A DNA stretch of 64,000 nt from Chiloscyllium plagiosum (taxonomy: Eukaryota): the NCBI RefSeq assembly GCF_004010195.1, contig NC_057751.1, positions 10,675,831 to 10,739,830 on the forward strand, written 5' to 3'. The notes under the pieces were generated by a model. The model saw nothing but the letters and a program-made list of their open reading frames with translations, was not told the origin of the DNA and did not search any database. This document shows positions 652 through 61,757 of this stretch, in pieces; the first letter of the stretch is position 1; each line of letters begins with the position of its first letter. A program made the position numbers and the translations under genes.

Positions 652-746
652 AGGCGCTTTCTCGATCGTCCGCAGATGCGTGAAGCTGTCAACAGGGCAA
701 GAATATGCAGCGAAAATCATTAACACCAAAAAGCTGTCTGCTCGAG
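652..746 (+). CDS. CAMK2D: CaMKII coding exon 2 (Gly-rich loop and AAK lysine of the kinase N-lobe)
   Basis: Pyrimidine tract plus ccag| acceptor. The 95 nt read (K)[31 protein letters not shown](D) in phase with exon 1. Donor is G|gttggt at 747. Confidence 0.95.
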
Positions 747-3244
747 GTTGGTAGATGTAAATGCTTTTATTGCAGTCCCCCCCCCCCCCCCCCGGACATT
801 TTCTTTTGGGGAGGCTGTGGGCTACAGTGGGAATGAAGCAGCTGTCAGTCTGTATCCACCCATCTCCGCCGTCTCAAAGCTAGTGACAGCCAAGCGACGC
901 TCAAACGCAGCCTCTCCTTCTCATCTGTCGGGATGTGATCATGTTTATGACACACACGTCAGAAATGCTCCTTAGCCCATTTTTTATTTGTTCCTCGGGT
1001 TTGTTTTTCTTGCCCGTTCGCGATTCAGTCACAATTTTAAAAGTGTGGTTGTCTATTCCCTTATATGTTTCAATTTGCACCTTAAATTTAAATTGGTAGC
1101 AATATTCGGCGAGGACAGGGCTTTGGTGGGAGAGAGTGTGTCAATCTCTCGTCTACAACTTGTTACAGTGTCACCCAGTTGGACACGGTTTTTTTTTTGA
1201 CTGGAGCTATTTTGACTGCAGATTGGTTGCAGCATTTGGTTTTCGCATTGCTTTTTATGACGAATGCAATTCTAAAAATGGTATGAAAAATATTAGGGGC
1301 CGAGCATTTCGTGAAACCTTCCACACGTGCACACCGAAAATAATCGGGATCGTTCATTTTTTTTTCAAATCTGTCACTGAAAGTACCTTGGTTCCTGGTG
1401 CAGGAAGATCTCTGTGGTGCTGAGATTAGACGGTGCTCATTAATCAACAAGCATTTTAAAACGTTGGCTTCAACTCTCATGAATTGGAGGTGGGGGTTAG
1501 GAAACGGAAATCTCTTGGTCGAGACGCATGACCGGGCTCATTCATCTCCCAGTTTCTCGTTCCTCGCCCAGTAGATGGGTTTGTTTAGCTGATCACACAG
1601 AGATCATGTGCTCGCCATGTCTGCGTGACAGTGCAGTCTTCTGGAACTAACCTCTCGAAGGTGCCTGCCCAGATTCGTTTCAGGAGGCGTTAACAAAATA
1701 CGGTCCTTAGAAGTGGGTTTCTGGCGTAGCCTGCCAATTTCAAACGATCTGTGTCAGTCGTGGTGTTTTTTGTATAAAAAAAAGGGTTGTGGAATAAATT
1801 GGACCAAATAAAACCTAGTTCTTGTTCAGAGTTAATAAGTGAATGATAGTTCATGATTCCCTTCAATTCCCTCACTTCACAAGTCTGTCGTCAGTACACC
1901 GTGCCTTGCTTCCAAGGCAGTCGCAGGCCTTCTGACAGGGTCTGCACTGGTTGTTTTGAATCATGTGTCGAGAGCAGCATTAAGTTATTGCTTTTTTGCC
2001 ATTTGTGTTTTTGTGGGTAGCACCAGACACAGGGAGAGGTCCCAGGGGAAGGGAGTATAGCACATCGCCCACATTGGTCGCATTGCAAGCAGCAGACTGA
2101 TTTCAGAGCAGAGTTTTGTTGTACAGTGTGATGGAGTGATGAAGACCATTGTATGCTCTATGCAAATAATCAGATTCTCAAAGCTCTCATCCTGCCGAGG
2201 GTTCAGTTTCTTTCTGTGTAAAATGGTAAATGCAGTTTATCTGGCAAGACATAGGTCCTGGTGAGATTCAGGCAGGGGAACTAAAGGTGTGGTCAAATAC
2301 CTGCTTTTGAGGTGCTTTCAAAAGGGTGTTGAAAGGTGATGGATGAGGAATATTCCAGATGTATGGAGCGACATGGGTCAGGATGTAAGAGAGGGTACAC
2401 TGATGTGAAAGCTGGCCAGCAAATTCACAGCTGGACCTGTTGATGTTTCTCAAAGTTATTCGCATGTGGTTCTATCTGTAAACATTAAAAACTACTTGAG
2501 GGAGGAGGAGATCTCTCTTTCATCGATCTGTTGCCTTTATGTTACTTGATCACATTGGCTGCATTCTGCACAATGCATTATTTTTGTGTGAATTACAATT
2601 TGACCTCCGGTATGAGGAAATGCAAGTGCTGTGCCAACTGGCATTTCACACCCTCCAAGCGCAGTTGTCGGGTATCGAGGTACAATTGTAATTGGTGTGT
2701 TGACAGAGGAAAGACTTTGCTGTGGGATATTGAAATGTCACATAGTTGGTGCAGTTAACTTCGAATTATCTCCACCACTGAACAAGGGTCTACCAAAGTT
2801 CAATTTCATTTGCAATTCACCAAAATCTTAACAGAATGCAAAACCTGGACTCTTGTAAAACCTTTTGAGCTCCACGAGACTTGCAGCTGTGCATTGGCTT
2901 CACTATCTCAAAGGCATGAAGGAGAAGATGTCTATCTAATGGCTTTTGACTGTTAAGGCAAAGAGGAGAGATGAGAACACGACAAGGTACAGCCCTGTTG
3001 GTTAATCATGTGTTAATATTAATTTTTCTGAGCTCCCCTCTGAGAAGTGGACACTTGGGTCTGGTTTTGGAGAGCAGCTGGAACTCCAGCACCTTATTTG
3101 AAGACTCATTGGGTGCAACTAAACTTCAACAGGGGTCTTCTTTCATCCTGGAGGAGAAAGTGAGTCTGCAGATGCTGGAGATCAAAGTTGAAACTTTATT
3201 GCTGGAACAGCACAGCAGGTCAGGCAGCATCCAGGGAACAGGAG

Positions 3245-3280
3245 ATTCGACGTTTCGGGCACAGGCCCTTCTTCAGGAAT
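3245..3280 (-). ncRNA. Minimal type-I hammerhead ribozyme motif
   Basis: Reverse complement reads ATTC-CTGAAGA-A-GGGC CTGT GCCC-GAAA-CGTC-GAAT, with intact core, stem II and stem I. Confidence 0.85.
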
Positions 3281-3815
3281 GAGCAGAGAGTGTTCAGCAG
3301 GAGAAGAAGAGCTTCTGTGCAGAGGAGATGACCTGGGGTGTGCAGTGAGAGAGGGACTCACTGAGATCTTTGTAGAGAGAGGATGCTGCCTGGCCTGCTG
3401 TGCTTTTCCAGCACTGCACTTTTTGACTCTTTCCAAGACAATGGGAATTTTTCATTGTTGTTTAGCATACAGTTCTATCATACATCAATGAAAATGCAAT
3501 ACGTGAAGGAGCTAATTACGTAGCTTCCTTGCATGAAAGAAAGAGGAATATAATTACATACTAACCAGGAGAAAAATAATAAGTTATGATTTAAGAAACT
3601 GAAATAAAATTTAAAAATAGGAAAATGTTAAATTCAAAAGAAATCAAGAAAAGATAGTTTTTAAAAAACTCTTTCGAGTCCTTGTTACGTTTTAAATGGA
3701 CACTACAGTTGCTTATCTTCGAGGAGAAAGTGAGGTCTGCAGATGCTGGAGATCAAAGTTGAAACTTTATTGCTGGAACAGCACAGCAGGTCAGGCAGCA
3801 TCCAGGGAACAGGAG

Positions 3816-3848
3816 ATTCGACGTTTCGGGCACAGGCCCTTCTTCAGG
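3816..3848 (-). ncRNA. Hammerhead motif with truncated stem I
   Basis: Same core and stem II as 3245-3280, but most of the 5' stem-I strand is removed by the inversion junction at 3848/3849. Confidence 0.65.
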
Positions 3849-4086
3849 GCCTGGCCTGCTGTGCTGTTCCAGCAATAAAGTTTCAACTTTGATCTCCAGC
3901 ATCTGCAGATCTCACTTTCTCCTCGAAGATTTCAACCTACTGCGAATCCTCTTACAAGGATGCCTTCCTTGAAGAAGCTCTCTGCCTCTCTCTACAAAGA
4001 TCTCAGTGAGTCCCTCTCTCACTGCACACCCCAGGTCATCTCCTCTGCACAGAAGCTCTTCTTCTCCTGCTGAACACTCTCTGCTC

Positions 4087-4122
4087 ATTCCTGAAGAAGG
4101 GCCTGTGCCCGAAACGTCGAAT
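4087..4122 (+). ncRNA. Minimal type-I hammerhead ribozyme motif, sense to the host gene
   Basis: ATTC(4087-90) CTGAAGA(4091-97) A GGGC-CTGT-GCCC GAAA(4111-14) CGTC GAAT(4119-22). The predicted cut is after GUC (C4118). Stem III is only the ACGU palindrome, as in PLE hammerheads that act as dimers. Confidence 0.88.
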
Positions 4123-5449
4123 CTCCTGTTCCCTGGATGCTGCCTGACCTGCTGTGCTGTTCCAGCAATAAAGTTTCAACTCTTCTTTCATCCTGGCAAG
4201 CTCACTTCACCATCAAGTTTTCGTGAGGCTGTGGAGAAAATTTCTTGGAATAGCCTATCTCAATATTTTTGCAAATCATCCAACAGTGATGTTTTATAGT
4301 ATCTCAGAATAGATAAGAAAAATAAATGAGTGAGTCAAAACTGTCCTGTCAATTTGTAACTACCCTCTCACCGGAGAAAGACTGGACAGTGAAATAAAGG
4401 GACAAGCTGCTGAAAGCACATGTTAGTGCAGGATGTTCTTGTTGTAGTTACGTGACCAGTAATGTTGACTGCTGTAAAAGCTGAATAATAATGCTTTTTT
4501 CCACATGAATTATATGAATAAACTGAAGTTTTTCTAAGGTCGTAACACAGTTACAGGAAGTGGCACTGCAAATTAGTTATAAAATTCTGTTGGATAGTCA
4601 ATGCCAAGGAATGATAGAGATGCAAAGAGGAAGTAGTTGAAAGCCAATTTTCTTATGTTCACTATGAGGTTTAATTTTCATTGGGGTTAGAGCTTCCCTG
4701 TGATTTGCCCCATTAGTCATTTTCCCAAGTCCAAGCTTGGCTAATGAGTACTGTCAGCCCCAGGCCCCAATCATTTATCTTAATGATATGAAGAATGAAT
4801 TTTACTGTTGTGAGTAGGATGTCTTGGACACTGTAGATAATCAAGGAGAGCAGCTTACATCCCTGACAATCTCTGATTTGTTTGTATTGTATCCAGACCT
4901 TTGTGCAAGGTTGGATAAATGAAGCAAACTTCTTCATGGAAATGAGCAGATTGCAGTTGAACACTACAAAAGTCTTCATTCCCAGCTGAAATATTTCTGA
5001 CTGGGAAAGTCAGCTCTTGCACTTCGCCTCTTGAAGTTTGGATCACAAGGTAACAGCCAAGAGCAGAAACGTTTCTTCTGCCCCCATTCTTTCTAGTTCA
5101 CAGCCATTGGGCCATTTGCAGAATCCCTGCATTTGTACTGGTGAGACCCACCGAACTGAGCATTGAGCATGGATTACAAACATTGTGAGCTGCCTTGTCT
5201 ATGCATGCATGCAGTGTGCCATTTCGCTACTGAGTATTGATGGAGTTGGCTTTGTTTAATGTACCTCAGAAAGCCAGTTGGTGAAGGATAATATAGCAGC
5301 TAATCTTTATCCTTATTTATTTACAGACATCAAATTGTAAGGACACAGTAACTTAGATCACAACTTTGATTTTAGTCGATATCTATTTACAAGGTTTCAA
5401 ATGAATATCAAATATTTGCAAGCAATTGATGTACAATTACGGATTCATT

Positions 5450-8744: not shown

Positions 8745-8912
8745 TTGTGTTCGCAAGTTTTGAGAAGATTTGTAGCTCAGGTTGAGGTTCTGGATGTAAG
8801 TTTGCTCACTGAGCTGGAAGGTTCATTTCTAGACGTTTCGTCACCCTACAAGGTAATATCTTCAGTGGGCCTCCAGGCGAAGCACTGCTGATCATTCCTG
8901 CTTTCTACTTAT
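8745..8912 (-). mobile_element. PLE-type terminal fragment (second type) carrying a hammerhead motif at ~8828-8869
   Basis: Reverse complement reads CCCA-CTGAAGA-T-ATTACC TTGTAG GGTGAC-GAAA-CGTC-TAG. The surrounding sequence is unrelated to the main terminus family. Confidence 0.65.
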
Positions 8913-12051: not shown

Positions 12052-13573
12052 CTAGAACTAGAACTCTGTCGGAAGCTCGAGAAGCGATTGCTGGGCCTCT
12101 TGTTGAGATATTTGTATCATCGATAGTCACAGGTGAGGTGCTGGAAGACTGTTTAAGAAGGGTGGTAAGGACAAGCCAGAATAGTATAGACCAGTGAGCC
12201 TGACATTGGTGGTGGGCAAGTTGTTGGAGGGAATCCTGAGGGACAGGATGTATGTGTAATCGGAAAGGCTAAGACCGATTAGGGATAGTCACCATGGCTT
12301 TGTGCATGGGTAATCGTGTCTCACAAACTTGATTGAGTTTTTTGAAGAAGTAACAAAGAAGATTGATGAGGGCAGAGCAGTAGCTGTGATCTATATGGAT
12401 TTCAGTAAGGCGTTTGGCAAGGTTTCCCTTGGGAGACTGATGGCCAGTTTAGGTCTCACGGAGTACAGGGAGAACTAGCCATTTGGATAAGAACTGGCTC
12501 AAAGGTAGAAGACAGAGTGTGCTGGTGGAGGGTTGTTTTTCAGACTGGAGGCCTGTGACCAGTGGAGTGTCATAAGGATCGGTGCTGGGTCCTCTACTTT
12601 TTGTCATTTACATAAATGATTTTGCGAGCATAAGAGGTATAGTTAGTAAGCTTGCAGATGACACCAAAATTGGAGGTGTAGTGGACAGCGAAGAAGGTTC
12701 CCTCAGGTTACAACAGGATCTTGACCAGATAGGCCAATGGGCTGAGAAGTGGCAGATGGAGTATAATTCAGATAAATGCGAAGTGCTACATTTTGGGAAA
12801 GCAAATCTTAGCAGGACTTGTACACTTTATGGTAAGGTCCTAGGGAGTGTTGTTGAACAAAGAGACTTGGGAATGCAGGTTCATAGCTCCTTGAAAGTGG
12901 AGTCGCAGGTCGATAGGATAGTGAAGAAGTCATTCGGTATGCTTTCTTTTATTGGTCAGAGTATTGAGTACAGGGGTTTGGAGGTCATGTGGCAGCTGTA
13001 CAGGACATTGGTGAGGCCACTGTTGGAATATTGCATGCTATTCTGGTCTCCTTCCTAAGGGAAAGATGTTGTGAAACTTGAAAGGGTTCAGAAAAGATTT
13101 ACAAGGATGCTGCTAGGGTTGTAGGATTTGAGCTACAGAGGGAGGTTGAATAGGCTGGGGCTATTTTCCCTGGAGCGTTGGAGGCTGAGGGGGTGACCTT
13201 ATAGAAGTTGACAAAATTATGAGGGGCATGGATAGGGTAGATATGTAAAGACTTTTCCCTGGGGTCGGGGGATCCAGAGCTAGAGGGCAAAGGTTTAGGG
13301 TGAGAGGGGAAAGAGATATAAGAGACCTAAGGGGCAACCTTTTCACGCAGAGGGTGGTACGTGTATGGAATGAGCTGCCAGAGGAAGTGGTGGAGGCTGG
13401 TACAATTGCAACATTTAAAAGCATTTGGATGGGTATAGGAATAGGAAGGGTTTGGAGGGATATGGGCCGGGTGCTGGCAGGTCGGACTAGATTTGGTTGG
13501 GAAATCTGGTCGGCATGGACGGGTTGGACCGAAGGGTCTGTTTCCATGCTGTACATTTCTATGACTCTATAAC
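12052..13573 (+). mobile_element. 5'-truncated CR1 (HER1-like) LINE with disrupted RT
   Basis: Peptides LGPLLFVIYINDF, SKLADDTKIGG, KCEVLHFG, LYRTLVRPLLEYC and FTQRVVRVWNELP. The 3' tail is ggaccgaagggtctgtttccatgctgtac..ctatgactctat. Stops and frameshifts are present. Confidence 0.93.
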
Positions 13574-13611
13574 TGCCAGAAGCAATTTGCCTCTCACTTA
13601 CTTTCACCAGT

Positions 13612-19329: not shown

Positions 19330-20290
19330 TGACAAAAATGGCAGGTAGCCACTTCACTCTTCGTCATGTTGTGGGATTGCACTCCCATGGTGAAGAGCAG
19401 ATGGCTGGAGCCTGCAAACTGGAAATTCTGAAACTGATGTAAAGCTTCAGAAGAATCGCAGATATAAATGGCGAGGAGCTGGATGGGGGAGAAGAAATCA
19501 GGTTGAAGTCGGATGACCTGAATTCTGTGGGGCAGGAGCCAGCAGGAACAGCAGGTCTTTCTAGGCAATCCTGTTTGTGAATGTTGGGAAGAAGCTACAA
19601 GTGAGCAGTGTGGGGTTGGGGGACAGTCAGCTTGGAGGCACTGGGAGGGGAGCCCACCAGATGGAAGGAGCTTCTTTTCATTGTGGACTCAATGGTCTGA
19701 TGGTCAATGTTGGGGTCATGTTCCAGAGGGAGAATGGAGGAGGTGTCCGAGAGCTGGTGATCAGCCTCCGTAATGTATTGGTCAGTACGCCAGACAACAA
19801 CAGGCAGGCTTTGTCAGTCACTTGATCATCAGTCAGGTTAAGATCTCAAGAGTACGGAATGCACCCAGTTCAGAGGGGGAGAAGTTTAAATGGGTAAGGG
19901 GGCAGTGAAATTGAAGCAACCAGTGTCACATAGACTGTCCTTGATGAACAGGTTGAATGCACATAAAAAGCCTGAGGGAGGGGTACAAGTGCAGGGAGAG
20001 TGTTGGAAGCAGGTGAAGGTTTCTGTTGGATGGGCAGAGGACTCTGGTCCAAAGGAATAGGTGTAGAGGCAGAGGTGGCAGAAGAAAGATTCACTTTCAT
20101 GTTGTGGCTGAAATTCATGGAGGTGGGAGCGTAGAGGGGGTAAAACCTGAGATGCTGAGTACAGAACGTTCAGCATCAGAAAGTGGAAGGTCACAAGGAA
20201 CAGTGAATACATTAAAAGGTTCGGGAAGCAGAGGAAGGTTTCACAGGAGCCTAGTTAGGTTTCAAGTGTTGCAGATTTGAAGTTGTTCCT
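19330..20290 (-). mobile_element. Old degraded PLE internal fragment
   Basis: The reverse complement near 19780-19830 (gacaaagcctgcctgttgttgtctggcgtactgacc) aligns by eye to the DKRGAVVVWRTNLY region of the element at ~22690. Confidence 0.55.
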
Positions 20291-21409: not shown

Positions 21410-24400
21410 GGCCACATTCTGAAGCAGACTCGTTACCACAGCCACATCTCCTTCCTCAATGCCTGCCTGCGGAACTGAACTGTTCCCGAATGGACTCTGG
21501 ACTATATTCAGACCATCACATTTTGGACCTGTTCAGGACGACAGCTACCTACAGCAAATCCAAAGCCTTCAGAAACGGTTCTCCCTCTGGATCATCCGTT
21601 CCATGTTCGCAGCTATGCGCATCCGTGTGTCACCACCTACTCTCCCTGTAGTCAGCCTTGCGTCAGCTCAGGGCCACACTCTCCCAGACGTGCAAAGGAC
21701 CTTTGCTATTCTTCATCCTGAGAAGAATTCACACACTCAACAAATGCTTTCTCTCTACCGTATCGAACATTGGGGAACATTGGGGAACTAACCTTCATGT
21801 ACTTACCTCCAAACTCCCTCAATCATCCCAGAGGCTTCTCCCGGCCTCTGGAACCACTCGGACATCATGAGGCATGCGGCAGCTCCAGGCACCACCACCA
21901 AACGCTGCCATCACTTCTGTCCCACTGCCCCATAGACTGCAGCCACCGCCAACAATACCATCTCTGTGATCACCGGCAAGACAACCGCCTTTTCAACCGC
22001 TGCAAGAACCACTGCCGCTGAAACCACCCTGGAGTCTCCTCGGCATGTCACTTTCATTCCAATAGTTGCCGCCGCCGCAGCCACTTCCACCCCCCCATTG
22101 ACTACACTCACTGGAACACTGTAGATGACACTGCGAACATCATGTGTTATGTCACTTCTGCCCCCCTGACTACCCCCCAGGGTGAGGGTCACTTCTGTTG
22201 GTGACATTACCCACAATCCCATAACCACACCCACTCCAGAGACAGTCTCCACCCCACACTCCCAGTTCCAGCCCCACACCAGCTCCTATCTCCCAGCCCT
22301 GCCATGTTTTTAACCATCACCCCAGATCTCCCCCTCACTGAGGATGAATGATCAGACCTCACCTTCATCCCCCTATGCTCCCGAATCAATGAATTCAACA
22401 CGTGTTGGACATTGAAATGTTCTTCCGCCGCCTCTGCCTCCATGCTTACTTTTTCCATCAGGACTCCCACCCATTCTTCAAGGACCCTTCTCCTGTCTCC
22501 AACGCACCTCATCCACCTGGACACCCTGTGCTGGTCTGTTATCTGCCCTCGATCTCTTAATTTCTAACTGCCACCATGACATTGACTATCTCAACCTGTC
22601 CACCCCCTCACCCACTCCAACCTCTCACCCTGGCAATGTGCAGCCATCCACTCCCTCTGCTCCAATCTCAACCTCACCATCAAACCAGTGGACAAGAGGG
22701 GCGCGGTGGTAGTTTGGCGCACCAACCTCTACATCGTTGAAGCCAGGCACCAACTCGTGCCACCCCCTCCTCCTGTCCCCTTGACCACGACTTCATCTCC
22801 CATCACCAAACCATTATCTCCCAGGCTATCCACAACTTCATTACCTCAGGGGATTTCCCACCAACTGCCTCCGACCTCATAGTCCGGGAACCCCGAACCG
22901 CCTGGTTCTATCTCCGACCCAAAATTCACAAACCTGACTGCCTTGGTGGACCCATCATCTCAGCCTGCTCCTGCCCCACCAAACTTATTTCTGTACATCT
23001 TGACACAGCCCTGTCTCCCTTGGTCCAGGATCTCCCCACATACGTTTGGGACACCAATGCCCTCCACCTCCTCCATGATGTTCATTTCTCCAGCCCCTAA
23101 CGCCTCATCTTCACCATTGACATCCTGTCCCTGTACGCATCCATCTGCCATGATGAAGGCCTCCAAGCCCTCCATTTCTTCTTCTCCTGGTGACCCCACC
23201 AGTACCCTTCCACTGACACACTCATTTAGTTAGCTGAAATGGTCCTCGCCCTCAACAGTTTCTCCTTCAAATCCTCCCACTTCCTCCAAACCAAAGGGGT
23301 AGCCATGGGTACCCACATGGGTCACCGTTTTGCCTGCCTCTATGTCAGGAACATGGAACAGTTCACATTTCGCAGCTACACCGGCATCATTCCCCACCTT
23401 TTCCTCCGCTCCATCAATGACTGTATCGGCGCCACCTCGTGCTCTCACAAGAAGGTTGAACAGTTTAACAACTTCACGAACACCTTCCACCTCGATCTCA
23501 AGTTCACCTGGACCATCTTGGACACCTCCTTCCCTTTCCTGGACCTCTCCATCTCCATTTCTGGCAACTGACTCAACACAGACTTCAAACCTATCGACTC
23601 CCACAGCAATCTGGACTACGCCTCCTCCCGCCCTGCCTCCTGTAAAAACACAATTCCTCCGCCTCCGTCGCAGGTACTTCCAGGAGGACAAATTTCACCA
23701 CAGAACATCCCTGACAGCTTCCTTCTTCAAACATCACAATTTGTCCTTTCAAGTGGTCGACAGTGCCCTTCAGCACATCTTCTCCACAGTGCACATCCGC
23801 CCTTGAATCTCACCCCTCCCAATGCAACTTGGACAGAAACCCCCCCCTCCCGTCCTTGCCTCCCATCCCAACAACCTCCATATACATTGCATCATCATCC
23901 GCCATTTCTACTTGCTACAAACAGACCCCACCACCAGGGATATATTTCCTTCCCCAACCCTAATCTGCATTCTGTAGAGACCATTCCCTCTGCGACTCCC
24001 TTATTAGGTCCACATCCCCCAGCAACCAGCCCTCCACTCCCAGCAACTTCCCCTGCCACCACCAGAATTGCAAAACCCGTGCCCACACCATCCCCTTCAC
24101 CTCTGTCCAAGGCCCCAAAAGGATCCTTCCACATCTGACAGAGATTTACCTGTACTTTCACACACATCATCTACTGTGTCCGTTGCTCTCAATGTGGTCT
24201 CCTCTACATCGGGGAGAGGGGATGCCAACTTGTGGAATGTTTCTGAGAACATTTCTAGGACACACGCATTAAACAATTCCACCACCCTGTGGCCGAACAC
24301 TTTAATTCACCCTCCCACTCCACCAAGGACCTGCAAGTCCTGGCTGCTTCCACTGCCAAACTCTAGCCACCCGATGCCTCATCTTCTGCCTTGGGATCCT

Positions 24401-24721
24401 CCAACCACACAAGATAGAATGTGGATTTCACCAATTTCCTTATTTCTCCTCTCTCCACCTTATCCCAGCTCCAACCCTCCAACTCGGCACTGCCTTCTTG
24501 AACTACCCTCTCCACCCTCCTCTCTGACCTATCACCTTCACCCCCACCTATCGCGTTCCCACCTTGCTTCCCACCCAGTCCCACCCCCCTTCCCATTTAT
24601 CTTTCAGCCCCCTTGTGCCACCCCCTCATTCCTGATGAAGAACTTATGATCGAAACATCAACTCTCCTGCTCCTCAGATGCTGCCTGACTGGCTATGCTT
24701 TTCCAGCATCACGTTGTTTGA
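21410..24721 (+). mobile_element. Near full-length decayed Penelope-like retroelement, Neptune-type (RT + GIY-YIG)
   Basis: Disrupted ORF with DKRGAVVVW, FYLRPKIHKP, FTIDILSLY, QTKGVAMGT, FLRSINDC (YIDD position) and FPFLDL, a Cys linker CHHQNCKT, and the GIY-YIG motif IIYCVRCSQCGLLYIGE at ~24166-24216. The 3' terminus has a hammerhead remnant. TSD CTCCTGTAACA at 21399-21409 and 24722-24732. Confidence 0.92.
24628..24663 (+). ncRNA. Degraded hammerhead motif in the 3' terminus of the long PLE
   Basis: ATTC-CTGATGA-A-GAACTTATGATC-GAAA-CATC. The core is present, but stems I-III carry mismatches. Confidence 0.6.
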
Positions 24722-25401: not shown

Positions 25402-25534
25402 AGGTAAAAACAATGACTGCAGATGCTGGAAACCAGAGTCCAGATTAGAGTGGTGCTGGAAAAGCACAGCAGTTCAGGCAACATCCGAAGAGCAGGAAAA
25501 TCGACGTTTCGGGCAAAAGCCCTTCATCAAGAAT
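25402..25534 (-). mobile_element. Solo PLE terminus with hammerhead motif (core C-to-U)
   Basis: Reverse complement of 25499-25534 reads ATTC-TTGATGA-A-GGGCTTTTGCCC-GAAACGTC-GATT. Same variant as 42808-42907. Confidence 0.8.
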
Positions 25535-25539
25535 AAAGT

Positions 25540-25760: not shown

Positions 25761-26689
25761 TCCCTAGTTACCCAGAAGGCAGTTAAGAGTCAACCACTTG
25801 GCTGTGAGTCACATGTTGGCGTGACAAGGTAAAATGGCAGTTTCCTTCCCTCAACAACATTTAAGAAGCAGATGGAATTTTTTCGACCGTCGTTTCTTAG
25901 TCATCAGTGGATTTTTAATTCCAGACTTCTTTTATTGAATTCAAACGTCACCGTACACCACGTGACTTGAGTTGGACTGATTTCAGGAATTTCTTCACAT
26001 GTGGTGGATGTTTTCATACAGTCATGAATTTGGAGAGGTCTGTACCCCAAGTGCCTTTGCAAGTTCAGTCTTGGAGTTTGCTATGAGACCGAAATTAATT
26101 GGAGGTTCTAGTGTCAACAAAGGATATGAGCATATGCAGGAAAATGGCATTGAGGTAGATGATCAGCAGTGATCGAGAATGGTATAGCAGGTTTAAGAGA
26201 CTGAATGGCTTTCTCCTGGTTCTCTTTTGCCAAATGTATGTTGACACAAGGGGCTGTGCAAGCCTAAGCTTGGAAAATTTAGGCAAGTCAAATACTGGGT
26301 TCAGATTGTATCCCTCAACACGTGTGTCACACGATTCAGAACTGATTGATATAAAATATGTGTAAAAGAATGGCAGAAGGAGGTGTAGGCTGATGAAGAA
26401 TCAAAAAGGAAATTTGTTTTTGGAAGCAGTGTAAATGACTGATGAATAGAAACTACAAACAGGAGTAGGCCACTTGGTATTCTCCACCATTCACGATGAT
26501 CATGGCTGATCCTCAATCTCAATGCAATTTTCCTCTTTGTCCACATAGCTCCTGATGTCTTTATAATCTAAAAAAGTATGAATATATTCAGTGACATGAC
26601 CTCCATGGTCATCTGTGGTAGAGAATTCCGCAAGTACATTCCTCTTTGAATGAAGAAAGGTTTCTTCATTTAGATTTAGATAACTACAC

Positions 26690-29440: not shown

Positions 29441-30040
29441 CAGTCTGGTGTAATCAGCAACCTGAAGCACAGCTGGTCTATCCAATAGGATCCTCCATGG
29501 ATGCCATTGGCAAGAGCAGGACTTTGTATCAGTCTCCAATTGTCATTGCAAGGGCACCTTCTTGAATGACTACATTGTTTTGTATTTTATTGTTTTGGAA
29601 GGAAGTTGAGTGGTCATTAGGCCATTTCAGAGTCATCCATTCAGCAGGTTACCTGGAGTCATGTATTGACCAGAGCTGGAAGAATGAAGCAGATGGACTT
29701 TTCTGGCAGTCCTGTAGTTTCATGGTCACCATTGCTGGTACTTGTTTTTTGAATATCAAAGAATTCATTGAATTTTAGGTCTCCACCTGCACTGATTTCA
29801 AAAGCGTACTCCTCTGTATATTCCAGTCAGTGCCCAGATTTCTTAAGGACATTGAACTGAACGACCTAAAAGGCGGAGAAAGTGAATGGACTTAAAAGAT
29901 TAAATAGGAACTGTATGCTGATTTTAATCTTGATTATTTTGAAAAGCTGCAAGCAGATCTTCAAGTGCAAATGGTTCTTCAGGTTCTGTCAAATAGTTCG
30001 TCAGATTCTGAGTGACCTCCACTCATACACTTTCATTCTA

Positions 30041-30136
30041 ATTTCTGATGAAGGGCTTATGCCCGAAACGTCAACTCTTCAGCTCCTCAGATGCTGCCTG
30101 ACTGGCTGTGCCTTTCCAGCACCACACTCTTCAACT
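30041..30136 (+). mobile_element. Solo PLE terminus beginning at a hammerhead motif
   Basis: CTGATGA(30045-51)-A-GGGCTTATGCCC-GAAACGTC(30065-72), then the same terminal sequence as 24660-24721. Stem I is weak. Confidence 0.82.
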
Positions 30137-30625
30137 ATGTATTTTTTCCTGCTTTACTTGGCATAGCTGGACTGAAATGGTGTGATATGCCACAGTTTTA
30201 GTTTCTCAATTTACATTCTGTTTCTGCAGCTCTGCAGAAAGTAACACCCAGTTCCTTCAATTGACCAGTGCTAAACACAGGCCAAAAGGAAAACCCTTGC
30301 TTTCCTACAATGATTGGCAGCCATTTCAACACATTCTGTGTTTTGTGATTCAATAAGGTTTCTTCTGACTTTGTTTCTGAGTTTTGATGAGTTTATTTTG
30401 AGCCAGAGAATAACTTCCCAGCACACACTCAGAGCATTACTCAGATGTTTCCTTGTGTAGCATCACCTAATGCTGTGCCTCAGCTGAAACACTCTTCCTG
30501 CCTTTTGTAACACACAGACTTCACTGTTCCAACAGATTCCAATGGCCTCACAAGTTCCATCCTCTGCAAAGTTGAGGTCATTCAAAAATCTGTGGCCCAA
30601 ATTGTAACTTGCACAAATTTCCATT

Positions 30626-30744
30626 TGGAGAAAGTGAGGACTACAGGGATGCTGGAGGTCAGAGTTGAAGCTTGAAATGTTGATTCTCCTGCCCTTTGGA
30701 TGCTGCCTGATAGGCTGTACTTTGCCAGCACCACACACTTCAAA
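30626..30744. mobile_element. Mini PLE insertion (inverted tail + plus-strand terminus)
   Basis: ggagaaagtgaggact.. on the left and a plus-strand terminus on the right. TSD AAAT(T/G)TCCATT at 30615-25 and 30745-55. Confidence 0.7.
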
Positions 30745-30948: not shown

Positions 30949-31126
30949 AGGAGAAAGTGAGGACTGCAGATGTTGGAGATCAGAGCTGAAAAATGTGTTG
31001 CTGGAAAAGCGCAGCAGGTCAGGCAGCATCAAAGGAGCAGGCGAAGGACTCATGCCCGAAACGTCGATTCTCCTGCTCCTTGGATGCTGCCTGACCTGCT
31101 GCGCCTTTCCAGCAACACATTTTCAG
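30949..31126. mobile_element. Mini hairpin PLE insertion
   Basis: Inverted arms at ~30983-31041 and ~31072-31128, with a partial hammerhead in the loop. TSD CTTTTGT(A/T)TATT at 30937-48 and 31127-38. Confidence 0.85.
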
Positions 31127-34100
31127 CTTTTGTTTATTGGACCATATTGGTCGTCAAGCCTTTCGCTGCCGAGGTCCTCACCTCCGAGTTCTTGCCCCAA
31201 ATTTCTTTGCCTTTTGCTTTTCTTTCCTAATTTAGGGTATTTGTAAAAGCTGCTTTCTGTCAACAAGCATTTTGGTCATTTTGTCTCTGATCTCCTCATG
31301 TGGCTTGAAGTTCCATTGTATGGAACTTTGCCAGTTTTGCTTTTTATGTAAATCATCTTTGTAAGTCTGTCCTTAAAAACCTGAATAAAAACACTGTTTA
31401 AACTTTGGCTTCACTGAAGGATGTTGTTATTTGCAAGAGTCGATGTTTGGGATCTGACCAGCTCCCTGAGCTATTTCCTTAAGAAAGCACGACTTTCTGC
31501 AACTTGGAGCTTCTGTAGATTTAATGTTTGAAATAAATTATGTTTTGCCGTAGTGCATTGGGAGCCATTTTCACAAATGGCTTAACTTAACCCCTAAAGC
31601 TTACCATTGACATACCTGGTTTGCTGTATCTTTGGCAGTTACGTAATCCTGATGCTTTGTTGCATTGCTTGCAGTCAATAAATGAATCCTTTGATTGATT
31701 TCACCCAAAATTCTCGTCCTTTGGGTGTCATTATTTCTGGTTGACGCATTGAAACATTAAAGTTGAAGTCAAATCCTGTTGCTCTAATCCTGCTTCTCGA
31801 TTGTTGGATAATCCTAAGTGACTTTCACATCCTGTGCACATTTATTGCAACACAGCTTCTGCTGCACATGGGGTGAAGTATGTTCAGCAGAAGTTTGTGG
31901 AACTTTGTGAAAGAGAGAAAGCTTTGTTTTGAAGAAAACCCCTTCTTTCATTGACCTCTCCCAATTCCACCATTCCCTACCAATGCCACTTAAGTGTTTG
32001 TGCCCGCAGATTAAGAACCCAAGTGTTGAGAACCACGATAAGCTTGATAAGCTGCTTGCAGTTTTAAAGTGAATGTGAAATGCAATAAATAATTGGTGTC
32101 TGTAAAGTGGTTATGGAGCATTCAGATTTTTTGTGAAAGCACAGCTTTGAGGAAAGGTGATCTGTTGTCATTATCCAGTCTAATATCTTGGTGAGGCTAG
32201 TCCTGCATGAATGTGGGCTGCTGTTTAACTGAACTGGTCCAGCAAGTATCTGTTAATTAAACTGTAGCAGCAGTTGAAGAGTGTGGTCGCCATCACATCA
32301 GCAACAAATTCTAGCCTTGCAAACTGAATCCAACTTCTGAGTCTTTATAAATATACCTTGATGGAAATATCACATCTTACTTTATTGCATACTTTGTATT
32401 AATCCAGGAGAGTAGGGTTAAAACCGTTTAAAATTGAGAATCTAGTTTTTTTTAAAGAAAATCTGAAAAGGAAATGTTGATGTGTGTAAAAGTGGCCATG
32501 AACCTATTGAGTGACCATCATGATCTGTGTGTCAGTTATGGGTTTATCATGAAAGGTGAAGTAAGCCAATGTTGCAGACTCAGTGTAATGAACAAGTTCC
32601 TGTTGAAGCTAAAATCCTAGGTTAGTGTCACAGAACTGAATGTAAACCTTCTGGGGTGGGGTTTGGTTGTTCACCTCTTCAAAGAGGTTGGACAGAGAGG
32701 ATAAGTTTTTGGAACGTAAGTTAACAGTCTGGGTAGATCAAAAGATGTTTCCCTGTCTTTGGTTGTCATTTATTATCTACATAATGCCCTGAGTGGGGGT
32801 GGGGGGCTTGTTAGCTTGACACTTACTGTATATCAGTTGTGAGGATCTCCCTCCTGAATAGCAATTTGTTGTCTCGACACACACAGCATTTGTAAAAGAC
32901 AGCTCACCATCATCTTCTTGAGGACGATTATGCGCAGGTACTAGATGTAGCCTTGCCATTAGCATGCACATCCCATGATTGCCCAAAAGAAGTATTTCTG
33001 TTGTCAGATGAGTTTGCCTTGAAAACGGAGAATGGTCGCAACACCTGGGTAATAGATGGCTGTTGACACAACAGAGCTGTACCCCAACACAGATCAACAG
33101 TTTGATCGAACAAAATGATCTGGAAAGAGTGAGAATAGTATTTTTTTAAAAAAAAGACCTTCCCTGTTTCCTTTTGAGAACCAATAGATCAACTCCGTGC
33201 CCCTTCACAGTGCCTCAGCTGAGGGAGGGTGAAGTTTCCCAGTGTTCCATTGTGCTGTAGGCAACATTAGGAGTTGTGAGAAACAGGTAGAGATACCAGA
33301 AATACTTGGTTCTATTATGGAAAGGTTGGAAGTTGTGATGGGTTTCTGACAGTTACTGAAGAACAAGTAATGAGAAATGTTGACAGAAGAAAATAGTGAT
33401 CGCAGTAAGGTTTGTGCACAGGAAGTGCATATACCCTACATTAGATTTCTAATTACTTACAGCTAGTTGAGAGTTAACCGAAGTGGTTTACAGGAAGGAA
33501 ATTGCCAGTGCCTCATATACTGTTTACACAACTCAACCAAATTTTGGTGCCGAGTGAAGGGTCTAGGGTCAGACTGGATTCAGCAGGGTTTGTTCAGTCA
33601 GCACCATCAGAACTGATAAAAGTTGAAGATTAGTTCAAGTATTCATTTCGTATTTCAGGTAGACATGAAACAGACATTTGGCACAGCATACAAATAGACT
33701 CAAGACTGTGTTTCCGCTTTTTAGTCAACATCAGTTTGTTTGCAATTGTTAAAAAAGTTGTGGAATTCACTTAGACTTGAATTTTGAACACTTGGAGAAG
33801 AGAGTGGCAACACTGTATCTGCTTTTGCAGTGTCGGATATACTTTATCAGCAACAGACTTTTGGAAGTCCAGACGTATGTGAAGAGTGCTCCCCTCATCT
33901 ACTTAGTCCATTATTTCATACAAAAAATTTGTGAAATTGAATGAATAAAGTGTTTTGAAAATCTTCAATCTTGTTTGATTGATCCACCTTTATTGATATG
34001 TGAAGTGTTAGATCAATAACCAGCAAACCTAAATTTCAGTGCACATTATGTGATGTGCTACAGGAGGCGAGTGGAACTATTCATCTCGGGAATCTTGGAA

Positions 34101-39071: not shown

Positions 39072-42025
39072 ACACAGTTACAGAGTCCTAGAGATGTACA
39101 GCATGGAAACAGACTCTTCGGCCCAACGTCTCCACATCGACCAGATATCCTAAATTAATCTAGTTTCATTTACCAGTATTTGGCCTTCTAAAGCCGCCGC
39201 CTTCATATACCCATCTAAGTGCCTTTTAACTATTGTCATTGTATCAGCCTCCACCGCTTCCTGTGGCAGCTCACTGCATATATGCACCACCCTCTGCATG
39301 GAAATGTTGCCCCTTATGTCCCTTTTACATCTCTCCCCTCCCACCTGGAACCTATGTCCTTCAGCTCTGGACTCCCCCACCCCAGGGGAAAAGACTTTGG
39401 CTATTCTCAGTATCCATGTCCCTCATTATTTTATAAACCTCTTATAAGGTCACTCCTCAGCCTCCGACGCTCCAGGGAAATAACCCCAGTCTGTGTCTCC
39501 TGATAGCTCAACCCTCCAACCCAGAAACATACTCGGAAATCTTTATGAACCCTTTCAAGTTAACAATATCTTTTCGATAGCAGGGAGACCAGAATTGCAT
39601 GCAGTATTCCAAAAGTGGCCAAAGCAATGTCCTGTGGCCACAGTGGCCGCAACATGACCTCCTAATGCCTTTACTCAGTGCACTGACCAATAAAAGCAAA
39701 CAAACCAAACATCTTATTCACTGCCCCATCCTCCTGGGAAACCACTTTCAAGGAACTATGAACCTGCACACTCAGGTCTCTTTGACCAGCAACACTCCCC
39801 AGGACCCTACTATTAAGAGTATAAATCCTGCCCTGATTTGTGTTACCAAAATGCAGCCCCTCACATTTATCTAAAATTACACCCTGTTTGCCACTCTTTG
39901 GCCCCTCGGCCTGTCTGATCAAGGTCCCACTGTATGCTGAGCTAACCTTCTTTACTGTGCACTGCACCACCAAATCTTAGGGTCGTCTGCAAACTTCGTG
40001 ACCATTCTTCCTTTATTCACATTGAAATTATTTATATAAATGACAAAAAGCAGCGGACCCAGCACCAATCCTGTGGCACACTGCTGGTCACAGCCCTCCT
40101 GTCCGAAGAAAAGCCCTCCAACACCACCCTCCGACTCCTCCCTTCAAGCCAATTTTGTATCCCAGTGGTTATATCTCCTTAGATTCCATGTGATCTAACA
40201 TTGTGAACCAATGTGGAATTTTGTCGAATACCTTTCTGAATTTCATATGAACAACATCCACTGCTCTGCCTTCATCAATCTCCTTTGTCACTTCTTTGAA
40301 AAATTCAATCAAATTACTGAGACCTGACTTCCCACGCACAAAGCCATGTTGACTGTCCCTCATCAGTCCTTGCCTTTCTAAATTCATGTAAATCTTGTCC
40401 CTCAGGATTCCTTCCAACAACTTGCCCACCACCGATGTCAGGCTCACTGGTCTATAGTTCCCTGGCTTTTCCTTACCGCCCTCCTTAAACAGTGGCACCA
40501 CATTAGCCAACCTCCAGTCTTCCGGCACCTCACCTGTGACTATCGATGATAAAATATCTCAGCAATGGGCCCAGTAATCACTTTCCCAGCTTCCCACAGA
40601 GTTCTGGGTACACCAGGTCGGGTGTGGGGGATTTTAGCCTTGTTTTGTACATTTTAAGACGTCCAGCACCTCCATCTTTGTAATATGAATGTTTTTTCCA
40701 CTGTCACTATTTAGTTCCCCAAATTCTCTGTCTTCAATATCCTTCTCCACAGTAAATACTGACACAAAATACTCAATTAGTATCTCACCCATCTCCTGCA
40801 GTTGCACACACAGGTGGCCTTTTTGATATTTAGGTGCCCTAGTCTCTCCCAAGTTAGTCTTTTGCCTTTAATTTTTATATAATCTCTTTGAGTTCTCCTT
40901 AACCCTATTTGCCAAAGGTATCTCATGTTCCCTTCTTTCCCTGTTGTGTATATACTCCTTATACTCCTCTCAGGATTCACTCAATCACATCTGTCTGTAC
41001 CTGACATACACCTTTTTCTTGATCAAAGACCCTCAATGTCTCTCGTCATCCAGCATTCCATACACCGACCAGCTTTGCCATTCACACTAATGGGAACATA
41101 CTGTCTCTGGACTATTGTTATCTCATTTTTGAAGGCCTCCCACTTTGCAACTGTCCCCTTCCCTGTAACTAGTCTCTCCTAATCAAGTTTTGAAAGTTCT
41201 TTCCTAATACTGTCAAATTTGATCTTACTCCAGTCTAGAATTTTAACTTGTAGATCTGGTCTCTCCTCTTCCATAACTATTTTAAAACTAATGGAATTAT
41301 GATCACTGGCCCCAAAGTGCTCCCCCACTGACCCCTTCATCACTTGCTCTGCCTTACTTTCCAAAGCGGAAGTCAACTTCTGCATCTTCACGAGTTGGTG
41401 CATCCACGTACTGAATAAGAGAATTTTCTTGTACACACTAAACAAATTCCTCTCCATCCAAGTCCTTACTGCAAAGGCAGTCCCAGTCTACATCTGGAAA
41501 GTTAAAAGCCCCATGCTTAACAAACCTTTCGCTCTTACAGGTATCTGAGATCTCCTTACAGATTTGCTTCTCTGTTTCCTGGGTGGGATATAGTACAATC
41601 CCACTAAGGGCATCATCCCCCTCCTATTTCTTACTTACACCCAAAGAACTTCACTGGGCATATGCCCAGTAATATCCTCCCTAAGTACAGCAGTAATGTT
41701 ATTCATAACTAAAGACTTCACTCCCTCTCCTCTCTTCCCCCCCCCCCCCCCCTTTCTATTCCTCCTAAAACATTGGTACTCTGGAACATTCAGCTGCCAG
41801 TCCTGCTGTTCCTTGAATCATGTCTCTGTGATAGCTGTGATATCCCAGTCCCATGATGCCAACCATGTTCTGTGTTCACCTCCTTACCTGTCGGGCCTCT
41901 TGCATTGAAATAAATGCAGTTTAATTTATCAGTCTTACCTCATCCTTTGCCTTGCTCTTGCCGACCTCGACCAGCACATCTCCCCTGGATACTGGTCCCC
42001 TTCCAATTCAGGTGCAACCCATCAA
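39072..42025 (-). mobile_element. Long decayed CR1 (HER1-like) LINE covering most of ORF2
   Basis: Minus-strand peptides PEDWRLANVVPLFKEGGKEKPGNYRPVSLTSVVGKLLE, QHGFVRGKS, GEHFGASDHNSISF (endonuclease end) and LLEYCMQFWSP. The tail lies at ~39072-39125. Confidence 0.92.
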
Positions 42026-42702: not shown

Positions 42703-43099
42703 AACAAAAATGCAATTCAACTGAAACATGTTGGGAATGCGAAGGGAGATGCTTGGAGCTGTCAGTTGCTCACTCATTTTCTGCGTAACAGTCTTATATC
42801 TGTTAAGAGAGTCAAAATTAGAGTGGTGCTGGAAAAGCATAGCAGGTCAGGCAGCATTTGAGGAGCAGGAAAATCGATGTTTCGGGCAAAAGCCCTTCAT
42901 CAGGAATCCCTTTTGTCCGAAACGTTGATTTTCCTGCTCCTCGGATGCTGCCTGATCTGCTGTGCTTTTCCAGCACCACTCTAATTTTGACTTTCTTAAC
43001 AGATATAAGACTGTTACGCAGAAAATGAGTGAGCAACTGACAGCTCCAAACATCTCCCTTCACATTCCCAACATGTTTCAGTTGAATTGCATTTTTGTT
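42703..43099. repeat. Long imperfect palindrome (190-bp arms, 17-bp spacer) centred on PLE termini
   Basis: 42703-42892 is the reverse complement of 42910-43099, with 10 transition mismatches by my count. Confidence 0.93.
42872..42907 (-). ncRNA. Hammerhead motif at the palindrome centre
   Basis: Reverse complement reads ATTC-CTGATGA-A-GGGCTTTTGCCC-GAAA-CATC-GATT. Stem III shows CpG decay. Confidence 0.7.
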
Positions 43100-55310: not shown

Positions 55311-55518
55311 TGGGGATGCTGGTGTTGGACTGGGATGGACAAAGTTAAAAATCACAGTACAACAGGTTATAGTCCAACAGGTTTATTTGGAAGCACTAGC
55401 TTTCCGAGCGCTGCTCCTTCATCAGGTAGTTGTGGAGTAGAAGATCCTAAGGCACAGAATTTATAGCAAAAGTTTACAGTGTGATGTAACTGAAATTATA
55501 TATTGAAAAAGACCTGGA
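55311..55518 (-). mobile_element. PLE-type terminus (third type) with hammerhead motif at ~55394-55429
   Basis: Reverse complement reads CTAC-CTGATGA-A-GGAGC AGC GCTCG-GAAA-GCTA-GTG, with palindromic stem III AGCU and a CUA triplet. Confidence 0.72.
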
Positions 55519-57344: not shown

Positions 57345-58550
57345 GCAATTAGGGTTAAGGAAAATCCAAAGCGATTCTACAAGTGCGTTGAGGACAAGAG
57401 GGTAACTAGGGAGAGAACAGGGTCCTTAAAGATAAACAAGGCCACATATGTGTGGAATTGCAGGAGATGGGGTAGATACTAGATGCATATTTTGTGGAGC
57501 AGGATATGGAGGATACAGAACATGGGAAAATAAATAATGACATCTTGAAAAATGTCCATTTTACAGAGGTGGAGATGCTGGATGTCTTAAAACACATAAA
57601 TGTGGATAAATCCCCCAGAACCTGATCATGTGTACCCTAGAACTCTGTGGGAAGCTGGGGAAGTGACGGCTGGGCCCCTTGCTGAGATATTTATATCAAT
57701 AGTCACAGGTGAGGTGCCCGAAGACTGGAGGTTGGCTGACGTGGTTCCACTATTTAAGAAAGGTGGTAAGGATGAGCCAGAGAACTATAGACCGGTGAGC
57801 CTGATATTGGTGGTGGGCAAGTTGTTGGAGGGAATTCTGAGGGGCAGGATTTACATGGATTTGGAAAGGCAAAGACTGACTCGGGATAGTTAACATGGCT
57901 TTGTGTGTGGGGAATCATGTCTCATTAACATTATTGAGTATTTTGAAAAAGTAACGAAGAGGATTGATGAGGGCAGACTGGTGGATGTGATCTTTATGGA
58001 CTTCAGTAAGGCGTTCAACAAGGTTCCCCAAGGGTGACTGGTTCGCAAGGTTAGATCTCATGGAAGAGTTCAGAAAAGATTTACAAGGATGTTGCCAAGG
58101 TTGGAGGGTTTGAGCAATAGGGAGAGGCTGAATAGTCAGGGGCTGTTTTCTCTGAGATTCGGAGACGGAGGGTGACCTTACAGAGGTTTATAAAAGCATG
58201 AGGGACATGGATAACGTGAAGAACTAAGGTCTTTTTCCCAGGTGGGTGAGTCCAAAACTAGAGGGCATAGATTTAGGGTGAGAGGGAAAAGATTTAAAAG
58301 GGACCGAGAGGGGAACCTCTCCATGCAGAGGGTGGTGTGTGAATGGAATGAGCTGCCAGGGAAAGTGGAGGAGGCTGGTTTAGTGAAAACTTACGAAAGG
58401 CATTTGGATGGGGATATGAGTAGGAAGGGTTTATAGGGATACGGGCCAAATGCTGGCAAATGGGACTACATTTATTTCTGATATCTGGTCGGCATGGATG
58501 AGTTGGACCAAAGGGTCTGTTTCCGTGCTGTTTTTTTCTGTGACTATCTG
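57345..58550 (+). mobile_element. CR1 LINE with a large internal deletion near 58065
   Basis: ORF piece VPEDWRLADVVPLFKKGGKDEPENYRPVSL. The sequence jumps from gttagatctcatggaa to gagttcagaaaagatttacaagg, skipping the RT core present in the 12-13.6 kb copy. Confidence 0.9.
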
Positions 58551-58624
58551 ACTCAGGTTATACTTAGACCATCTGCTTTTAAACACATCCGCCATGTGGA
58601 ACAGATTCTCACAAAGTCCCCTGT

Positions 58625-60390: not shown

Positions 60391-61151
60391 TTACCCTCGA
60401 GTCACCTGGTACTTGACCTGTGGCCAGCCAAGTTTTATAAGTATATACCAGAGCCCCAGCAATCTCCTCCCGGAGCAGCCTGGGATATAGCTCAGGGGTT
60501 GATGTATAATTCTTATGTATTCATAAGGACTGCTCTGAGCCGTTTTGAATTCTCCATGGTCACCTGGACTGATTGAGTCGTAAAGAAATGTACTGACCCA
60601 CAGATTCTAGATGACTCAATTAAGCAATTGGCGTTATTGGTTGTTAATTGTGCTGCATGGGTAGTCAATTTTTAGTTTCTAAATTGGTTTCTCATTTGTT
60701 CTGTCAGGTGGGATAATGGAAGAATCTGGGATGTTGTCACCTTTTGCCAAAACAGAAACAAGAATTGTGTTATAAAGCAAAGGCTGACCTCTTTTCCCAA
60801 CTCCCCACACCCCATCCCTCCCAACCCCTCACTCTGAGAATTAAAATGGAATCACTCAAAGGGAAGTGCCTGACTCTGCAATCTGTAAAAGGTGTATGAG
60901 AAGGGGTGTATGTAACCTGTTTTCTCAGCCACATCTAATGGTTAAATAAAAGAAATCCCGGACACTCAGTTTACAGTCAACAAATGACAATATATTCATC
61001 TGACTTTAACAGTGAACAAATTAATTAAACTGTTAACAAATCATGTAAATCCCTTCTCTCCTATTCCTGAATAAAACACAAATATAAGCCTCACTTACAT
61101 ATTTTTTTTAAAAAGTTTAGTTTCTCAGAATTATAGCCAGGCGACCATGTC

Positions 61152-61757
61152 ATACAGTCATAGAGATGTACAGCATGGAAACAGACCCTTCGGTCCAACC
61201 TGTCCATGCCGACCAGATTTCCCAACCCAATCTAGTCCCACCTGCCAGCACCTGGCCCATATCCCTCCAAACCATTCCTATTCATATACCCATCCAAATG
61301 CCTCTTAAATGTGGCAATTGTACCAGCCTCCACCACATCCTCTGGCAGCTCATGCCATACACGTACCACCCTCTGCGTGAAAAAGTTGCCCCTTAGGTCT
61401 CTTTTATATCTTTCCCCTCTCACCCTAAACCTATGCCATCTTGTTCTGGATTCCCCCACCCCAGGGAAAAGTCTTTGCATATTTACCCTATCCATGCCCC
61501 TCATAATTTTGTAAACCTCTATAAGGTTACCCCTCAGCCTCTGACACTCCAGGGAAAACAGCCCCAGCCTGTTCAACCTCTCCCTATCGCTCAAATCCTC
61601 CAACCCTGACAACATCCTTGTAAATCTTTTCTGAACCCTTTCAAGTTTCACGATATCTTTCCGATAGGAAGGAGACCAGAATTGCACGCAATATTCCAAC
61701 AGTGGCCTAACCAATGTCCTGTAGAGCCGCAACATGACCTCCCAACTCCTGTAATCA
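61152..61757 (-). mobile_element. Young 5'-truncated CR1 3' end
   Basis: Uninterrupted frame 61232-61735 (LYRTLVRPLLEYCVQFWSP...FFTQRVVRVWHELP). It is closely similar to the reverse complement of ~12970-13570. Confidence 0.93.

Follow-up and report, generated by a model that had tools for sequence, protein, structure and literature searches.

A 293-nt hammerhead-containing unit at a shark CaMKII locus: a PLE insertion from a probably shortened template

A shark CaMKII locus holds, in several near-identical pieces, a unit with a period of 293 nt and a minimal hammerhead motif. The question it raises is whether this unit spreads through a circular RNA, as a retrozyme would, or whether its pieces were laid down by the ordinary insertion process of a PLE. 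The initial annotation took it for an internally deleted PLE that propagates as a monomer or circle, with a Neptune reverse transcriptase (RT) supplied in trans. The coordinates of the features found in the window (the whole 64-kb stretch of DNA that was analysed) are collected in Table 1.

Table 1. Features of the window
Feature	Position	Strand	Details
CaMKII kinase-segment coding exon	653-745	+	From translation; same strand as piece C
Left TSD copy	3136-3151	+	16 bp; one copy only at the empty site (run X10 record 9)
Piece A, inverted arm	3152-3382	-	Cycle 3985 to 4181 to 3923; 0.79 period; one 1-nt deletion
Hammerhead motif in piece A	3245-3280	-	Identical to 4087-4122
Piece X, likely captured copy of another locus	3383-3714	+	332 bp
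Piece B, second inverted arm	3715-3848	-	Cycle 4090 to 4181 to 3930; 0.46 period; one substitution
Piece C, direct arm	3849-4180	+	1.13 periods; starts 23 nt after a cut site; its end is the inner family end point (+62)
40-nt block, first copy	3849-3888	+	Second copy 4142-4181
37-codon ORF	3960-4073	+	Codons 1-34 (3960-4061) correspond to the PLE protein N-terminus
Predicted 16-bp hairpin	4047-4108	+	4047-4064 paired with 4093-4108; would sequester hammerhead core and helix II
Junction plus 22-25 nt lacking an assigned source	4062-4086	+	Between codon 34 and the hammerhead
Minimal type I hammerhead motif	4087-4122	+	Predicted cut after C4118; by the consensus given in PMC4209133
Right TSD copy	4181-4196	+	16 bp
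Decayed, 5'-truncated copy of an older related PLE family	21410-24721	+	RT-like and GIY-YIG-like motifs by eye, hammerhead remnant, tail
Older PLE-end stubs	25412-25536, 30027-30139, 30627-30743, 30949-31128, 42808-42992		Three are head-to-head palindromes
LINE-type repeat copies	12060-13575, 39075-40912, 57345-58553, 61149-61760		Two with weak RVT_1 matches

The pieces all fall on one cycle. The two copies of the 40-nt block agree at 39 of 40 positions with a spacing of 293 nt, and the minus-strand pieces A and B map to the same cycle without a break, both as originally described; the limits first given for piece A (3151-3380) were off only by bases shared with its neighbours. The unit is 293 nt long, has a GC content of 50.2%, and contains no coding content other than the 37-codon ORF, in agreement with the earlier statement that the unit has no RT. 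Piece A carries the ORF/end junction together with one full hammerhead motif and is 100% identical to piece C over 197 nt, and the hammerhead of piece B is missing three helix I bases. One site occurs in three versions in these near-identical pieces, as a 1-nt deletion at 3164 in A, a C at 3735 in B and a T at 3910 in C. This site sits 13–20 nt from the priming ends of A and B, and the A version is also present in run X1.

Alignments within the window show pieces A, X, B and C to be contained in an insertion of about 1 kb at 3152-4180. A 16-mer direct repeat, found in the window at 3136 and 4181 only, brackets A, B and C as well as the 332 bp separating A from B. The corresponding empty site is present in a related species: the contig of run X10 record 9 (organism B) joins 2900-3135 directly to 4181-4460 with a single 16-mer, its flanks differing from the window at 13 of 236 and 10 of 280 bases. 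Both outer junctions of the filled site occur with 0 differences in run X1 (organism A, records 1 and 8). As the duplication brackets all the pieces and the site is empty in organism B, the whole of 3152-4180 is one insertion event, and it therefore postdates the divergence from organism B or is at any rate missing from that sample. The insertion lies downstream of the CaMKII exon, presumably in the following intron. The initial annotation had overlooked the 16-bp flanking duplication, the captured piece X, and the agreement of the piece ends with other PLE-end copies in the window.

That agreement is relevant to the apparent circular permutation of the pieces. Twelve piece ends in the window, read by hand off the alignments, fall at 61–71 nt (7 ends), 97–105 nt (4 ends) and 86 nt (1 end) after the cut site. 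The outer ends of the insertion lie at +98 on the left (A) and +62 on the right (C), 36 nt apart, and the outer ends of two older palindromes (30949-31128 and 30627-30743) fall at these same points. The 3' end of piece A coincides with the outer family end point (about +98), and at this same cycle position loose ends pile up in the sequencing runs: they accumulate at 3721-3724 in four of four runs, those at 3722 comprising 281 contigs in run X1, 333 in X10 and 82 in X16, and 233 reads in X21. In run X1 the summed contig depth reaches 5.1 million over the tail compared to 15–16 on the flanks, a value that reflects an abundant family end and is not a copy number. The 33-nt tail core has 13 matches in the window, 5 of them within the insertion. 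The "permuted" ends are the usual end points of the PLE family, that is, the known PLE tail, and since two PLE priming sites explain them, no circle is needed.

PLE insertions are described as having a 30–40-bp tail on one side and an adjacent inverted truncated copy, along with internal deletions and capture of host DNA (PMC3846280, PMC8557442). The insertion has a 36-nt tail on one end only, inverted 5'-truncated copies (B beside C, and A at the outer left end), and a TSD at a site that is empty in the relative (X10 record 9). In these structural respects it behaves as a non-autonomous template inserted in the manner of a PLE. Among the older stubs, the copy around 42808-42992 is part of a near-perfect 397-bp palindrome (42703-43099, 92.7%). 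Here about 100 bp of non-PLE sequence, itself inverted, extends the PLE palindrome on each side, a pattern which suggests that target DNA was duplicated in inverted orientation.

The PLE origin of the unit itself is apparent from its short ORF. When aligned to longer PLE ORFs, as had been proposed, its first 34 codons match, with 32 of 34 residues identical to P0001 (XP_060689572.1); the proteins P0001, P0003 and P0006 share these first 34 residues and then run on. Proteins of Hemiscyllium, Chiloscyllium and Rhincodon are the closest to the small ORF. In their later parts, P0001, P0003 and P0006 can be aligned to 21410-22709 of the decayed element; further along, this element has RT-like and GIY-YIG-like motifs, and it finishes with the same module of hammerhead and tail as the unit. 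Likewise, the contig of run X1 record 5 follows the window up to 4061 and then continues with unlike sequence. The unit thus consists of tail, 5' leader and 34 codons, joined via 22–25 nt to the hammerhead, and a search of the window for a source of 4062-4086 gave none that was convincing. The claim of an internally deleted PLE holds in that a PLE terminus with the ORF start is joined to the PLE end and longer relatives share codons 1-34. By these alignments the unit is a shortened PLE, although the same sequence would result from an internal deletion as from two end pieces in partial tandem, and the two cannot be distinguished. We also considered whether the unit is simply the normal terminal repeat of the autonomous element; this was rejected because in three relatives and one X1 contig the ORF continues beyond codon 34.

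The terminal repeat combines a minimal hammerhead with an ORF start, as in PLE units, and an ORF for RT and GIY-YIG is absent from the insertion, which makes the insertion a non-autonomous derivative and not an autonomous PLE member. Of the proposal that it was moved in trans by a Neptune RT, the trans part stands, as a PLE-type insertion with a 16-bp duplication and an empty site in organism B, and the Neptune label is plausible by eye only. It relates to a decayed Cys/His-rich motif at about 24048-24090 in the translation, ahead of the GIY-YIG-like stretch, a feature used for Neptune as described in PMC8557442; on this by-eye basis a partner element of the Neptune clade is plausible. The decayed copy that contains the motif is flanked by an 11-bp duplication (21399-21409/24722-24732) and starts exactly at the codon-35 position; Pfam and PDB searches of this copy yielded no RT or endonuclease match, its domains being by-eye calls. 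An atlas search with the N-terminus of P0001 returned no informative family. The shark gene model P0001, named "mucin-2-like", is a frameshifted PLE ORF as judged by its N-terminus and its alignment to the decayed element. Elsewhere in the window, 19891-20121 on the minus strand has a weak match to P0003 (E 1.6e-4) and is probably a more distant PLE remnant.

The first part of piece X is tail sequence from an older PLE family (about 3381-3432; two bases are shared with A), and AT-rich unique DNA follows. It has no second copy within the window. Two records follow it and then leave the window: X10 record 11 matches 3411-3715 and continues with 305 unlike letters, and X1 record 2 matches 3402-3703 and continues with 811. 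These matches suggest that piece X is likely DNA picked up from another locus during insertion. Its presumed source locus leaves the window 12 nt earlier in organism A than in organism B (3703 versus 3715), at about half the flank depth, and the departure at 3703 in organism A is possibly a donor-site scar. In run X1 a single contig covers X, with a depth of 8.84 versus 15–16 on the flanks, and departs from the window at 3703. The inner junctions A|X, X|B and B|C were not found in the records listed, and the interior rests on a single assembly.

The hammerhead motif in piece C has a helix I of 4 bp (4087-4090/4119-4122), followed by the core CUGAAGA (4091-4097) and one unpaired A, and a helix II of 4 bp (4099-4102/4107-4110); GAAA is present, and a self-complementary ACGU replaces helix III. 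A strict motif scan found 4 such motifs in the window compared to a mean of 0.1 across 30 shuffled windows. Rfam gave no hammerhead match at gathering score, so that the call rests on the consensus described in PMC4209133; weak Rfam miRNA-type matches at 3763-3882 merely reflect the B|C palindrome. The covariation score of the hammerhead helices among 8 window copies, two of which come from other families, was reached by 82 of 500 shuffles. Helix I is a perfect 4 bp in 4087-4122, and most older copies have a mismatch there. Other hammerhead-core-like strings occur on the minus strand at 8826-8865, 25881-25907 and 55401-55425; their sequence is unrelated to the main family, and they may belong to other PLE families.

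The motif was initially described as an intact minimal hammerhead, one per period. All core bases are indeed present, but folding predicts a block, and it is intact by sequence only. In the folding prediction the pairs of the 16-bp hairpin have probabilities of 0.98–1.0 and those of helices I and II 0.0. Whether the RNA is linear or circular, 11 kcal/mol are needed to impose the active fold, a cost that falls to 1.2 once the upstream segment is removed. The hammerhead is accordingly predicted by this model to be blocked by the hairpin. The unit as a whole folds better than shuffled sequences (z about −3; with the hairpin region left out, a cruder shuffle again gives about −3), and the predicted fold of the circle reaches −71.4 kcal/mol versus −57.6 ± 4.6 kcal/mol, with 0 of 200 shuffles as low. 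The part of the blocking pairing that lies in the ORF is at chance level, as equal strength is reached in 32 of 61 control windows and by 497 of 2000 synonymous recodings, whereas the pairing with the three junction bases included is equalled by only 3 of 61 control windows. A conserved anti-ribozyme helix as a designed feature of the full-length element was considered and is not supported, the pairing in the ORF part being at chance level.

These results lead us to favour, with somewhat better than even confidence, the explanation that a PLE protein acting in trans copied the linear RNA of a non-coding PLE copy already reduced to a period of 293 nt. The alignments above establish a single insertion, a PLE source for the ORF start, the captured piece and the positions of the end points; the course of events would be as follows. 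At a source locus elsewhere, codon 34 would have been joined to the front of the hammerhead, by internal deletion or as a partial tandem of two end pieces, and this copy would have been transcribed. The PLE endonuclease would nick both target strands 16 bp apart, the right target end would prime reverse transcription at the inner start site and give piece C, and the left target end would prime at the outer start site, about 36 nt further, and give piece A, yielding the inverted arm and the tail. For a third cDNA, B, synthesis may have begun at the outer site with the 3' end of a nucleic acid from the locus of X as primer. This primer could be RNA read through from an older PLE copy, which would agree with the orientation of X and with its start 16 nt beyond a cut-site position, or a second AT-rich DNA site that had been nicked. 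B would have been bridged in while the arms were joined by template switches at short homologies (0–2 shared bases). The hammerhead would play no part in this process, as it requires a partner copy and the hairpin is predicted to block it, and the outcome would likely be an inert intronic copy.

We infer that the codon-34 junction predates the insertion, because it does not differ between A and C, two arms of opposite polarity that start at different 3' sites, and because A reaches 36 nt past the end of C. Among the 24 listed of more than 85,000 contigs and reads there was no piece spanning the junction (4062-4087), and the source locus was likewise not seen there. Exact-pattern scans of metagenome, prokaryote genome and viral collections, which hold little or no shark DNA, gave 0 matches each; none of 5 window frames spanning the junction was present in a protein collection, and further protein searches found no homologue, both being weak proxies. 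The shares of sampled words in the sequencing runs ranged from 0.15 to 0.83 and are not convertible into evidence on the junction, since 0.29 or 0.43 of the words, according to the way of counting, belong to the unit and only 0.045 to the junction. A linear and a circular template would produce the same data, from which we cannot tell them apart.

A true non-LTR retrozyme would have tandem 293-nt arrays elsewhere, whose dimers self-cleave and circularise; the circles would be reverse transcribed by the PLE protein, and the pieces would be partial copies of circles. The short non-coding unit with a type I hammerhead agrees with this, its 293 nt being within the 150–450 range and its 16-bp TSD exceeding the 4 bp described in PMC7229834, with the GC content at the borderline of the less than 50% expected. 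Every piece fits one cycle, C is longer than one period, helix I is perfect, the predicted circle is stable, and families averaging 363 bp were counted in one chondrichthyan according to a preprint (bioRxiv 10.64898/2026.07.22.740005). However, no tandem unit of 293-nt period exists within the window, and the insertion contains one full hammerhead motif per strand. No piece passes the ribozyme cut site twice: the longest, C, spans 1.13 periods and would need 23 nt more for a second crossing, each piece has one cut site, and the ends are ordinary PLE start sites. The hammerhead is not of the canonical loop-loop type tied to retrozymes in PMC7229834, though it fits the descriptor of the 2026 preprint; it is a minimal PLE-type motif that is predicted to be blocked, while in most circles of animal retrozymes the motif is predicted to stay free, according to PMC7229834. 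The RNA data add no molecule-end pile-up in 1,836 reads, about 2/100 of run X21, a poly(A) single-cell library ill-suited to and uninformative on small circles; 271 of these 1,836 reads are at least 99% alike, and 97% continue with unlike sequence. Among the run-index matches listed, no RNA run contains words of the unit. Propagation as a monomer circle, as first envisaged, is not supported, and we regard a retrozyme as distinctly improbable here. As the defining tandem of complete units is lacking at this locus, the unit is not filed as a retrozyme.

Alternatively, the RT may have made a jump during the insertion itself, leaving the hammerhead front and landing on codon 34 of an ordinary PLE RNA, with A copied from the new DNA of C and neither a shortened template nor a family behind it. 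Other window copies also stop at the front edge of the hammerhead (cycle about 4084-4090), so such a jump would be easy, and the identity of A and C over 197 nt fits, as does the lack of a junction-spanning contig among those listed and of a protein record with a junction-spanning frame in weak searches. We nevertheless consider such a one-off unlikely: A has cDNA polarity, begins at the outer start site of the left target end and extends 36 nt beyond C; copying A from C demands one further switch; and A, B and C differ at one site, as separate cDNAs would. It is also conceivable that the unit is a natural short PLE RNA, reaching from the hammerhead front to the codon 34/35 break and closed as a circle or by an end-to-end jump independently of the ribozyme, which would make it a self-silenced family and a retrozyme precursor. 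The older copy at 21410 is 5'-truncated exactly at codon 35, where the ORF of the unit stops (codon 34), the unit folds well, and its junction lies inside the blocking hairpin, whose strength few control windows equal. These are two events only, noticed post hoc, and the ORF-only pairing is at chance level; our confidence in this possibility is accordingly quite low. Least credible of all is that, within a real outer insertion, X and/or B are an assembly chimera between PLE-end repeats. The missing inner junctions, the single low-depth contig over X in run X1 and the 0.83 of sampled words in the best run would be expected from a chimera, but the junctions are base-clean, B begins at a family start site, and the B|C palindrome matches other window copies. 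Moreover, short-read graph contigs commonly drop short links into very deep repeats.

With the copying of a shortened template in trans as the favoured explanation, the locus provides a clean, dated shark fossil of PLE transposition that combines both internal start sites, trans-mobilisation, DNA capture and an empty-site control. It supports the in vitro model of PLEs and adds no new mechanism. Should the junction turn out to be multi-copy or tandem, the unit would be a concrete intermediate between PLE and retrozyme, and the fixed break at codon 34/35 would hint at an RNA-processing or stalling site in the PLE cycle. PLE-derived retrozymes, including those of one cartilaginous fish, are already in print as a preprint (bioRxiv 10.64898/2026.07.22.740005). 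No paper on this particular shark unit was found in a search of mainly open-access literature; the chondrichthyan families tabulated in the preprint's supplement may include a relative.

The unit shares features with several known systems. Animal non-LTR retrozymes (PMC7229834; Li, Clavereau and Pollet 2026) are described as similarly short and non-coding, with a type I hammerhead, derivation from PLE termini, dependence on PLE enzymes and a long TSD; they are defined there by at least two tandem units with a complete ribozyme and by circular RNA, whereas the shark unit has 34 ORF codons and a minimal motif with a predicted block. The minimal hammerheads of PLEs (Cervera and De la Peña 2014, PMC4209133) likewise have a 4-bp helix I, an unpaired base before helix II and no helix III. 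Single motifs of this kind are reported there to be inactive in vitro and frequently to form opposite-strand pairs 100–700 bp apart. Helix II of the shark motif has 4 bp, unlike the motifs presented in that paper, whose main text does not contain the word "shark". Non-autonomous PLEs of the Chlamys type such as MRC1 (Craig et al. 2021, PMC8557442) are also short pLTR derivatives moved in trans; as described, they are proven to be multi-copy, are often arranged head-to-tail and have no canonical hammerheads, while the shark unit was examined at one locus.

The closest parallels are with insertions of endonuclease-bearing PLEs and with the green anole. Insertion units of endonuclease-bearing PLEs, as described in PMC3846280 and PMC8557442, have the same inverted and direct arms, one-sided tail of about 36 nt and TSD, as well as the ORF start inside the terminal repeat, internally deleted derivatives and capture of host DNA. 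The shark insertion differs from those descriptions in its 293-nt period and in its two inverted arms flanking a captured piece, and its TSD is 16 bp long, in contrast to the 8–10 bp given for rotifer PLE copies. In Poseidon of the green anole (Frangieh et al. 2024, PMC11167929) the ribozyme overlaps the start codon, unlike in the shark unit, and the start sites lie 111–118 nt inside the ORF, compared to shark end points about 37–72 nt upstream of the start codon; the shark family is known here from sequence alone. The template RNA of Poseidon is reported to need the ORF start. According to the same work, two internal start sites define a 30–40-nt tail in vitro, both strands are primed and ribozyme cleavage is dispensable, and the shark insertion is alike in having a tail that would be set by two internal start sites of reverse transcription.
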